Of a stretch of DNA of 30,715 nt, positions 1 to 3,000 are shown one piece after another (position 1 is the stretch's first letter; every line of letters begins with the position of its first letter). The stretch lies in IMG/VR virus record IMGVR_UViG_2703718822_000006, one strand, 5' to 3'. The position numbers are program-made. This DNA is from a virus (Duplodnaviria > Heunggongvirae > Uroviricota > Caudoviricetes).

Positions 1-3000
1 ATTATGGCTTCGTATGCGTTTGAAGATTATGCCCGTAGCGCGGCGAGCAAAAAACAGTGCCCCTGCTGTCACGGAAAAAAATTTATTGAAAGCGAGGTTT
101 TTACAAACAAGATCCAGTATCCGGATGGTAAGCCGCCAGTGTGGGCAAAGTGCACAAAAGGCGTGTATCCGTCTTACTGGGAGGAATGGAAAAAAGTCAG
201 GGAGGTGGTAAAAGTTGCCTGTCCGGAGTGTGGCGGAAAGGGGGAGGTTTCCACCGCCTGTGAAGATTGTCGTGGGCGCGGTGTTGCCATTCATCGTGAA
301 GAGTCGGAAAAACAGGGTGTGCCGGTTTTCAGAAACTGCCAGCGTTGTGGTGGGCGTGGCTATGAAAGATTACCTTCAACGGAGGCATTTAATGCCATAT
401 GTAATGTAACCGATGCCATATCTCTTGATACATGGAAAAAAACAGTTAAACGTTTTTACGATACGCTGGTGGTGCAGTTTGATATTGAAGAAGCATGGGC
501 AGAACAACAACTGAAAAAGGTGACCAGATAGCTTTGTTGATTTTTCCCGAATCTGTGGTAAATTTGCCCTAACGATGGGCGTTTTATGCCTGACGTTAGA
601 AGATTTTTACACCCGTCGCCAGGCGGGTTTTTTTATGACTGAAATCACGCCAGTACAGTAAACGCGCTGGTGGCGGTGAATACCTGTCTTTCAGCTTGCT
701 GGCTTTTTTGACAAGAGTTATTGGTGTGTCACGTTAACCGGAAAAGGGAAAAAGACATGCTGAAACAGCAGGATATGACCGAAACTGCCAGAGTGGTGTT
801 TAATGAATTAAGCGTCACCGAACCGGCGACAGTCGGGGAGATTGCGCAGAATACTTACCTTTCACGCGAACGCTGCCAGTTAATACTGACCCAGCTTGTT
901 ATGGCGGGTCTGGCAGACTATCAGTGCGGTTGTTACAGACGCCTTCAGTCCTGAAGGCTTTTTATTTGTGGTGAATGGGCGGCTGGTGGGGGGGGGCGAC
1001 ACCTGTCAGTCCTTTGCTTATGTGTTGATGATAATTTACCTTTTGGGGCTATAATTGAGCTAACCAATTGCTAATGAAAGTAAAATTATAATGGCTGTTG
1101 TCTGTTCAGTTATCATGGTTTGCTCCCCAATTAATATTTTTCTTGAAAAGGATACGTTGTCACTTAAGCCAGGCTCAGTCGTTCTGGCCACCAAATGCAT
1201 CAGGGAGCTTTTCCTTATGCATTATGGCAAAGTTAAAATTGTCGATATAAGCGAATCCGTCGTAAGTCAATATCTGGAAAGTCAGCATAAGCTGACGAGG
1301 ACTCGTCTGACTGACATTCCGCTTTACCTGTTGCTGGAACCCAACAATCCTGCGTTGGCTGCGGCTTTAATTACCAGCCAGGGATTTTCCGGAGAGGCCA
1401 CGGATATGTTTCTTATGATGGCCTGCCTGTCTCTGTTTGAAACAGATGAACGGATGTCATTGTTTTTAAGTGGATGTTTATCCAGCATAAGTGTCAAAGT
1501 CAGGGCGATAATTCAGACAGATATATCAGCAAGCTGGACGCTTGGTGCGATTGCTCTACAGTTGCATATGAGTGAGAGTTTGTTAAAGACAAAACTGAAA
1601 AATGAAGGGGGCATGTTCAGTCGCTTGTTGCTGGAAGAGCGGATGCGTGTTGCTGTAAATATGTTATGTTCCCGGTATGGATATGGACAGGCTGTAGCAG
1701 AAAAATGCGGTTATTCAAGCAGGTCCTACTTTATTTCTGTATTTCACCGCTATTATGGCTTCCCGCCAGACAGATATGTATCCAGGCAAGGGCTTGATTA
1801 TTGATTTTCATCTGATTATTATTTTTTGGCTCGGCCCTTTAGCTCAGTGGTGAGAGCGAGCGACTCATAATCGCCAGGTCGCTGGTTCAAATCCAGCAAG
1901 GGCCACCATATCAGATACCGCCATTAGCTCATCGGGACAGAGCGCCAGCCTTCGAAGCTGGCTGCGCGGGGTTCGGGTCCCCGATGGCGGTCCATTATTG
2001 GTATTCAGCGTTGTTAGCTCAGCCGGACAGAGCAATTGCCTTCTAAGCAATCGGTCACTGGTCCGAATCCAGTACAACGCGCCACACCACACTTATCTGC
2101 CCTGACTCTCTTTTGCGGGCTTTTTATTACAGGAAAGACACCGGACAGTGAAATGTTAAATGCCTCACAATTCAGGCAGTTGACTGTTGCCTGACATGCT
2201 GAGCGTTTGTTAAAAAAATCCTGCATGATGAATCCCCCTGAGCGGCGGGGCATAATGACAGATGTTTGGTTGCGTATTGTATAGGCAAGTTGCGGATTCT
2301 GTCTGGTCATTGCAGAATTCACCGGGAGGCACCCGGCATCATGCTGTATACAGAGATTAGGCATATATCCAGGCTCCTCATCGCAGGAGCCTTTTTACAT
2401 GCAAAAAAAGCCCGAGTGGGTTCGGGCAACAGCATGAGATACCTGCATTGTCATTTTTATCGTGTGGATTTTAACCAGGGTTTATAAGGCTGCGCAACTG
2501 CGCGGCCTTTTTCGTTTTGCGGGCTGCGGTTCTCCTCTTTTGATTCTCCGTGTAGCCGGACCGTGGCCCGCAACTGTTGAGGAAAATCCCGGAAAGGGGA
2601 GGAATAATGGCATTTAAACACTATGACGTGGTCAGGGCGGCATCTCCGTCAGACCTTGCGGAGCGACTGACACAAAAACTGAAGGAGGGCTGGCAGCCGT
2701 TTGGCAGTCCTGTGGCTATCACTCCTTATACACTGATGCAGGCCATTGCCGCAGAGGGTGATGTGACCACGCCTGTGGTTGTGCCCGACACAGGGGCTGG
2801 TGGTTCTCCGGGTGTGGCTACCACTGAACCGGAGTATTACTACGTTATTCCCCTGGCCGGGCAGTCGAACGGTATGTCCTATGGTGAGGGGCTTCCTCTG
2901 CCGGAGACCTATGATCGCCCTGACTCCCGTATTAAGCAGCTGGCGCGTCGCAGCACTGTGACGCCGGGTGGTGATACCTGTGCATACAATGACGTTATTC

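Follow-up and report, generated by a model that had tools for sequence, protein, structure and literature searches.

Two small genes lie side by side on the + strand between the late terminator tR′ and the tRNA genes of the lambdoid prophage in IMG/VR record IMGVR_UViG_2703718822_000006 (Caudoviricetes; 30,715 nucleotides (nt), the whole of which is called the window here), and the question that this locus raises is whether they form one regulatory module or have come together independently. The initial annotation had described them as an AT-rich pair, a PapI/FaeA-like winged-helix protein followed by an AraC-family regulator, reminiscent of the PapI/PapB-type switches of fimbrial operons and embedded in the transcript that depends on the late antiterminator Q. 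Both open reading frames (ORFs) were found in the place it described, at 757–954 (65 amino acids (aa)) and 1091–1804 (237 aa), between a terminator at 611–634 and a tRNA cluster at 1833–2084. Its observations are partly confirmed and its interpretation is partly supported: the second gene is, by sequence, an intact allele of psrB, and the segment is very probably chimeric, two independent units having been joined within the late region of the prophage, where a psrB moron has replaced a DNA methylase gene.

The AraC-type gene and its relation to psrB

The assignment of the 237-aa protein (1091–1804, + strand) to the AraC family was upheld by matches above the Pfam cut-offs to HTH_AraC (PF00165; 50 bits in two stretches, cut-off 26.6) and HTH_18 (PF12833; 37.8 bits, cut-off 33.6), and these matches to the AraC/XylS DNA-binding domain cover residues 155–230. 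Because the protein is identical at 235 of 237 positions (99.2%; substitutions A103V and V135A) to EDL933_RS10010, encoded in O-island (OI) 57 of E. coli O157:H7 EDL933, and because published primers for Z2104 fall on the gene for EDL933_RS10010, we conclude that the window gene is an allele of psrB (Z2104, OI-57/CP-933O) and, as judged from its sequence, a full-length copy of a gene that is already characterised. The primers, described for real-time PCR with an amplicon of 158 base pairs (bp) (PMC4763077), match EDL933_RS10010 exactly and 158 bp apart; in the window they lie at 1351–1370 and 1489–1508, with one mismatch and the same spacing. Source names in the protein databases were uninformative, and the identification is based on these primers together with synteny. 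In the resequenced EDL933 genome, OI-57 carries in order an antiterminator, a 65-aa ORF whose product is identical to that of the small ORF of the window at 64 of 65 residues, the 237-aa helix-turn-helix (HTH) protein EDL933_RS10010, tRNA-Ile and tRNA-Arg. The two proteins thus share length and neighbourhood, but the Q upstream of the EDL933 gene is of the DUF1133 type, whereas that of the window is of the PF03589 type, and EDL933 has two tRNAs where the window has three. The PsrA/PsrB-type relationship that had been proposed is borne out by this match, and the check for a pseudogene returned a full-length ORF that is not frameshifted.

Homologues of the window protein in a collection of 5.8 billion proteins, ranging from 39 to 99% identity, came essentially all from E. 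coli and Shigella, and the exact protein was present on at least 1000 contigs. Many database entries for it are 195 aa long and start at Met43. Conservation of the N-terminus (MAVVCSVI...) reaches as far as PatE and speaks for the start at 1091, which gives 237 aa. The nearest NCBIfam models were YdeO, which aligned along its full length (1–229 of 237 residues, E 3e-30) with 105.7 bits against an equivalog cut-off of 348 bits, and GadX, whose alignment was C-terminal and sub-threshold. PsrB resembles the YdeO/GadX/GadW/AppY group in these model alignments and in having reported targets in the same glutamic acid decarboxylase (GAD) regulon, but the scores fall far below the equivalog cut-offs, and PsrB stands apart as a prophage-borne lineage of its own, confined to E. 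coli as far as the matches found go.

Two reviews equate PsrA with Z1789 (OI-50), PsrB with Z2104 (OI-57) and PatE with Z0321 (OI-8), and describe PsrB as a protein that binds at the promoters of hdeA and gadE and raises the levels of GadE and YhiF, with a gain in acid resistance and an indirect repression of the type III secretion encoded by the enterocyte effacement locus (LEE) (PMC10877973, PMC8565820). PsrA is a 90%-identical paralogue of EDL933 PsrB. PatE (Sakai ECs_0287), a prophage-encoded AraC-like activator of acid resistance, belongs to the same family as the window protein, has the N-terminal motif MA..CSVI and is reported to share the hdeA promoter target region (PMC10877973, PMC8565820); it differs from the window protein in being only 37% identical and in lying outside the Q–tRNA slot, at the far end of Sp1/CP-933H beside an insertion sequence. 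The psrB finding in itself is little new, PsrB-type regulators and their effects on GAD acid resistance and the LEE having been described already.

No psr homologue was found in Sakai Sp6 or Sp10 or in CP-933N of resequenced EDL933; when these and Sakai Sp1 were searched, only PatE (37% identity) turned up. For Sakai, this result agrees with the statement in review that clade 1 strains lack psr (PMC10877973 / PMC8565820). Z1789/psrA was likewise not located in CP-933N of NZ_CP008957.1 (searched from 1625000 to 1674900), in which the interval between Q and nanS-p holds TerB and DUF3927 fragments only and no psr homologue. The placing of psrA in OI-50/CP-933N by the reviews is at odds with the resequenced EDL933 genome, and either the original assembly or the assignment of the gene to the island needs checking.

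The small winged-helix gene and its usual partner

The first gene after tR′ (757–954, + strand; called from its ATG) encodes a small stand-alone winged-helix protein of the SfV orf47/phiP27 L23 family, members of which are 94–98% identical to it and occupy the same position behind Q and the terminator. Its Pfam matches were winged-helix families below threshold (TrmB, MarR as MarR_2, and DprA_WH). TrmB (PF01978), the family named in the product "TrmB family transcriptional regulator" that the Prokaryotic Genome Annotation Pipeline gives to these proteins, reached 18.3 bits against a cut-off of 25.6, a generic winged-helix resemblance only. The label PapI/FaeA-like, given by the initial annotation, could not be sustained at the level of sequence. 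FaeA/PapI (PF04703) gave no match to the window protein at E ≤ 1 and none at E ≤ 10 to any of 12 diverse members of the small-ORF family, and PDB searches with the sequence retrieved no PapI or PefI chain. An AlphaFold2 model (predicted local distance difference test score 83) has helices at residues 4–18, 26–31, 37–49 and 53–59, a pattern typical of HTH proteins, and a Foldseek search of the PDB with this model gave no match that reached E ≤ 1e-3. The top of the Foldseek list was a mixture of winged helices, comprising AF1382, PcaR, an Lrp-type regulator, PefI (rank 8), Z-alpha and IscR. PefI (2jt1) aligned over 52 columns with template modelling (TM) scores of 0.65/0.60, but with an E value of 0.86, and dozens of unrelated winged-helix domains scored alike. 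Because the list is mixed in this way, "PapI-like" says no more than "small winged helix": the protein resembles PapI, FaeA and PefI in being a stand-alone HTH or winged-helix protein of similar size, and differs from them in having neither a match to their sequence family nor a significant fold match.

The small ORF is under purifying selection (median Nei–Gojobori (NG86) ratio of nonsynonymous to synonymous substitution rates, dN/dS, 0.23; 384 informative pairs), and we rejected the notion that it is a non-coding artefact on this ground. Its family occurs in 57 phage records, among them phages Stx2a, Stx2c, Stx2d, phiP27, SfV, cdtI and mEp460 and phages of Klebsiella, Morganella and Providencia, and only one of the 57 has a close psr (92% identity). 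It also occurs in 28 species-representative genome loci that extend from E. albertii to Xenorhabdus, Morganella and Plesiomonas. A DNA methylase of the N6/N4 type, of ~350 aa, follows the small ORF after a spacer of ~100–155 nt in 26 of these 28 loci (tblastn); of the remaining loci, one lacks a detectable small ORF but has the methylase, and in the other the small ORF is present and no methylase match was obtained. The combination of small ORF and methylase sits behind at least four unrelated Q families. In all six annotated methylase-type phages that we inspected, the next gene, ~140–150 nt 3′ of the small ORF, encodes a DNA adenine methylase of ~350 aa; in SfV and phiP27 it is orf48 and L24, respectively, whereas the window has psrB instead. 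These ORFs go unmentioned in a paper on pR′ regions (PMC6266700). Across 5426 complete E. coli genomes, the small ORF was present in ~2140, joined to the methylase in 1873 and to psr in 725, so that the arrangement seen in the window is found in ~13% of complete E. coli genomes.

These distributions bear directly on the proposal that the small protein and PsrB constitute a dedicated two-component switch analogous to PapI/PapB, in which the small protein would modulate PsrB or its promoter. Such a switch would fit the adjacency of the two genes on one strand in 725 genomes, the maintenance of an intact small ORF with dN below dS in psr-type copies, and the appearance among the top fold matches of PefI, a PapI-type fimbrial regulator. 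We nevertheless consider it quite unlikely, since the conserved partner of the small ORF is the methylase, in the species-representative loci and the E. coli genomes alike, and in some loci the methylase stands between the small ORF and a psr homologue; since FaeA/PapI is missing from all 12 family members and PefI scores no better than AF1382, PcaR, Z-alpha or IscR; and since the context is a phage late region, every examined locus reading Q, terminator, ORF, methylase or psr, and tRNAs, with no fimbrial operon or PapB. The psr gene, moreover, is accompanied by a promoter-like element of its own, described below. On its genomic distribution, the small ORF is not specific to psr, and the two genes are not a dedicated module. 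Because the usual place of the small gene is before a DNA methylase, we regard the pair as having arisen incidentally when cassettes were exchanged. Most probably the function of the small protein lies with the methylase cassette, in which it would act as regulator or partner, and in the window it is only a neighbour of psrB.

The psr cassette and its transcription

Comparison with methylase-type phages defined the borders of the exchanged segment. Homology of the window to phiP27, SfV and Stx2a_1447 (blastn) starts at 571–607 and ends at 990–1027; the alignments put the left break at ~1030, and homology with phiP27 and Stx2a_1447 resumes at 1829, four bases before the first tRNA. Because of this break and resumption, we regard ~1031–1828 (+ strand; ~800 bp) as an inserted or replacing cassette, a moron that takes the place of the 3′ part of the spacer and of the methylase gene. 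The description of the two genes as an AT-rich pair holds for one of them: the AraC-type gene has a G+C content of 43.8%, whereas the small ORF, at 51.0%, is closer to the 54.0% of the window. Deviant composition (43.8% vs 54%) goes together here with presence or absence at a fixed slot, as is expected of a moron, and the carrier is a lambdoid prophage, with Q, nanS-p, lysis, terminase, head and tail genes in the window. The slot may contain the methylase, psr, both or nothing; in Sakai Sp10, which lacks the ORF pair, only ~140 bp separate the antiterminator from ileZ.

Mixed states separate the two genes. In one locus (L045) the order is Q, small ORF, methylase and an AraC-type gene 63% identical to psrB; in another (L046) the small ORF is followed by the methylase, a TolA-like ORF and an AraC-type gene 58% identical to psrB; and a psr of 78% identity follows the small ORF behind three different Q types. 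From these arrangements we conclude that the AraC-type gene is a moron in its own right and the small ORF a part of the methylase cassette. The independence of the two genes is in this way established along with the identity of the AraC-type gene and the boundaries of its cassette.

The left junction of the cassette carries a sigma-70 promoter-like site (ATGATA, 16 nt, TATAAT; 1028–1055, + strand), which is the best such site between 450 and 2700 (10/12 matches) and lies 36 nt 5′ of the psrB ATG. The −10-like hexamer, TATAAT or TATACT, is kept at a constant distance from the ATG in four diverged psr cassettes that have different upstream neighbours.

We propose the following arrangement. Unit 1 (651–1030) is the conserved start of a cassette that is common just after Q/tR′ in many lambdoid phages of Enterobacterales and that, in full, consists of the small winged-helix protein, a spacer of ~150 nt and the ~350-aa N6/N4 DNA methylase. 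Unit 2 (~1031–1828) is a low-GC moron, made up of psrB and its own putative sigma-70-type promoter, that has come to occupy the place of the methylase gene and of the last two-thirds of the spacer. In the lysogen, transcripts from pR′ would stop at 611–634, and those that escape at a second hairpin at 941–964, and psrB would be read from its own consensus-like promoter. Upon induction, RNA polymerase modified by Q would pass both tR′ and the 941–964 hairpin, and psrB would join the late transcript; one RNA would then span the small ORF and psrB, followed by the tRNAs and late genes. The biology of Q read-through is established in lambda and Stx phages (e.g., PMC7547250). Because psrB lies 3′ of pR′/tR′ on the late strand, read-through into it can reasonably be expected, and the coupling of this host regulator to the lytic switch, as the initial annotation envisaged, is plausible by analogy with those phages.

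A stricter form of this coupling would have psrB lack a functional promoter of its own, be silent in lysogens and be expressed only through the Q-antiterminated late transcript. The gene does lie on the same strand as, and 3′ of, pR′/tR′; no convincing terminator, that is, no terminator-like hairpin with a good T run, was seen between the psrB stop codon (1804) and the tRNA at 1833; and in Stx phages the tRNAs are commonly regarded as belonging to the late transcript. This form is highly unlikely, however, given the 10/12 promoter-like site conserved across diverged cassettes 36 nt 5′ of the ATG, and given that the terminators at 611–634 and 941–964 would isolate psrB from pR′ in the lysogen. 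According to the reviews, in addition, deleting psrA has phenotypes, and psr genes exert effects in cultures that were not induced (PMC10877973, PMC8565820).

Several points weigh against the two-unit arrangement that we favour. In seven psr-type copies the small ORF is intact, and wherever there are substitutions dN is lower than dS; it is thus not just decaying and may have a function that also matters beside psrB. In addition, ~75 nt of the spacer (955–1030) are retained 5′ of the psr promoter. The promoter itself is a putative one, identified as a consensus match; read-through by Q would hold to the extent that the analogy with lambda and Stx phages does; and the functional statements about PsrB are drawn from two reviews (PMC10877973, PMC8565820).

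With respect to what is already described of PsrB, the analysis adds that the neighbouring small ORF is not specific to psr, that the psr cassette, as mapped to the base, replaces the methylase in a slot that is prone to recombination and lies between Q and the tRNAs, and that psrB would have two routes of transcription, its own promoter and Q read-through. The second route bears on whether antibiotics that induce the SOS response would raise acid resistance through PsrB.

The interrupted methylase cassette and other features of the window

We consider the interrupted cassette more interesting than psrB. Comparison across genera showed much stronger conservation in the spacer of ~150 nt that separates small ORF and methylase than in the coding DNA on its flanks; this conservation extends from E. 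coli to Morganella and Plesiomonas (alignment A4: L009–L011, L013, L015–L044). Its structure was modelled with RNAalifold and a hand-drawn set of five helices, and across 29 loci the spacer has the behaviour of a structured element: 85.6% of cells were paired, compared with 28–46% when the partners were slid, and 11 pairs had changed on both sides, compared with 1–7 in the slid controls; none of 500 shuffles attained the values observed, and because the shuffle control ignores relatedness, these numbers are indicative and are not probabilities. Double changes are also seen in an alternative helix, which is incompatible with two of the others. The first helix of the spacer contains a Chi site. 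The ATG of the methylase is preceded by an invariant TGATC(Y)ATG, with no obvious Shine-Dalgarno sequence. From its conservation and covariation, we regard the spacer as a candidate for a new element that regulates a late phage methylase in cis, and it deserves separate follow-up.

In the window, the spacer survives as a truncated remnant (974–1030, + strand) that corresponds to its first third; homology to the methylase-type phages ends at ~1027–1030, and only the first ~55 nt survive. The remnant contains a Chi site (982–989) and a run of nine G residues (988–996). This G run numbers nine in the window, eight in EDL933 OI-57 and seven in O157:H7 strain 7.1_Anguil; methylase-type phages have GGGTGTT at its position, and it is possibly just slippage in a decaying remnant. 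The folding of 955–1095, computed for the window alone, was no better than that of shuffled sequences (z +0.47). Upstream of the remnant, a terminator-like hairpin spans the stop codon of the small ORF (941–964, + strand; 7-bp stem followed by TTTTTATTT; −10.5 kcal/mol, z −2.0). Judged by eye only, its equivalents in other genera (columns 4–22 of A4) seem to keep their pairing through changed bases (CTCC/GGGG, TGCC/GGCA, CGCCAG/CTGGTG). A ribosome finishing the small ORF would sit on this hairpin, which suggests, speculatively, translation-coupled control of read-through.

These elements invite the idea that the small protein controls whichever gene occupies the downstream slot, through the spacer at 974–1030 or the stop-codon hairpin and by transcriptional or translational coupling, and that psrB inherited part of the control of the methylase. 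The extreme conservation and pairing of the spacer would favour this idea, as would the retention of its first ~55 nt and of the stop-codon hairpin in all psr-type copies. We judge it unlikely, because the remnant is decaying in psr-type copies: the long-range partner of helix P1 has been deleted, helix P2 is weakened and its Chi lost in three loci (L048–L050), and the G run varies from 7 to 9. The promoter-like site of the psr cassette, moreover, lies 3′ of the remnant.

A broader conjecture, to which we give only an outside chance, is that an undescribed control unit, distributed across lambdoid phages of Enterobacterales, is made up of the small winged-helix protein, the structured spacer and a late-expressed methylase of the N6/N4 type, and that it possibly still gates the output of psrB in the window. 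If so, the spacer may switch between alternative helices (P1/P6 vs P5), and the small protein could act as a translational activator or as a subunit, in the manner of Com-Mom or PNB-2; psrB would sit behind the 5′ half of the unit, and either the small protein or translation across the stop-codon hairpin could act as a gate on it. In phage Mu, Com is reportedly a small nucleic-acid-binding protein encoded just 5′ of the modification gene mom. PNB-2, likewise a small nucleic-acid-binding protein encoded just 5′ of its enzyme, has a winged-helix fold and is purified as a subunit along with the methyltransferase M.EcoPA8orf6770P (PMC10810198). That enzyme is an MT-A70 rRNA methyltransferase encoded near the other end of an Stx2 phage, a different enzyme at a different locus, and it serves as a precedent only. 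Both systems differ from the cassette of the small ORF in that their enzymes are different and their small proteins are different ones for which no homology is shown, and the methylase is absent from the window.

Under the two-unit arrangement, unit 1 begins with a leader 5′ of the small ORF (651–756, + strand) that is kept in E. coli and Shigella phages and contains a Chi site (666–673) and the hexamer TTGACA (708–713). In mEp460 and Stx2c_2409 the leader is ~87% identical in DNA while the small protein is only ~50% identical, so that the leader is more conserved than the coding sequence. The folding of 640–760, again computed for the window alone, was no better than that of shuffled sequences (z −0.42), and a search of Rfam matched neither the leader nor the spacer nor its remnant to any family. 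The TTGACA had been noted in the initial annotation as a −35 hexamer upstream of the first gene. It is present, but a consensus scan found no −10 partner for it, and other aligned copies have TTCGACA or TTAGACA at its position. We rejected it as a conserved −35 element on both counts and, from these alignments, regard it as fortuitous.

The slot is bordered on the left by Q and tR′. The window begins within the Q gene, of which it retains the C-terminal 175 aa (4–531, + strand; Pfam PF03589 Antiterm, E 2e-29); this fragment matches a 273-aa "antitermination protein" in the near-identical prophage of NZ_AP042495.1. Directly 3′ of Q lies the tR′-like intrinsic terminator (611–634, + strand), with a GC-rich stem of 7 bp followed by a run of seven T residues (RNA fold −12 kcal/mol, z −3.54), and at the corresponding place in SfV a terminator is annotated. 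The right border is formed by the tRNA cluster Ile(CAU)-Arg(UCG)-Arg(UCU) (1833–2084, + strand; ARAGORN and Rfam tRNA). ARAGORN called the Ile(CAU) tRNA as Met, and related phages are annotated as ileZ-argN-argO. A promoter-like site at 1794–1822 (TTGATT, 17 nt, TATTAT), within the 3′ end of psrB and 11 nt 5′ of tRNA-Ile, could allow expression of the tRNAs independently of Q.

Downstream of the tRNAs, a gene for a NanS-p-type esterase is followed by lysis, terminase, head and tail genes, the content of a lambda-like prophage. A prophage of the bovine E. coli strain OkiPb01678 is 96–100% identical to the window over most of its length and carries an ISEc12 insertion that is not in the window. 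Between the tRNAs and the esterase gene, a match to the Rfam small RNA STnc100 (2194–2402, + strand; 176.7 bits, gathering score 47) adjoins, on the opposite strand, a match resembling AgvB (anti-GcvB) and AsxR (2403–2462, − strand; 53.1 bits, just below the AgvB gathering score of 56).

Chi (GCTGGTGG) occurs five times in the window, at 465, 666, 982, 2796 and 6519, always on the + strand and never on the − strand. Three of the five sites fall within 520 bp, at the end of Q and on both sides of the small ORF, and the one at 982 lies within the conserved hairpin of the spacer. In our reading, this orientation would face RecBCD entering from the cos/terminase side.

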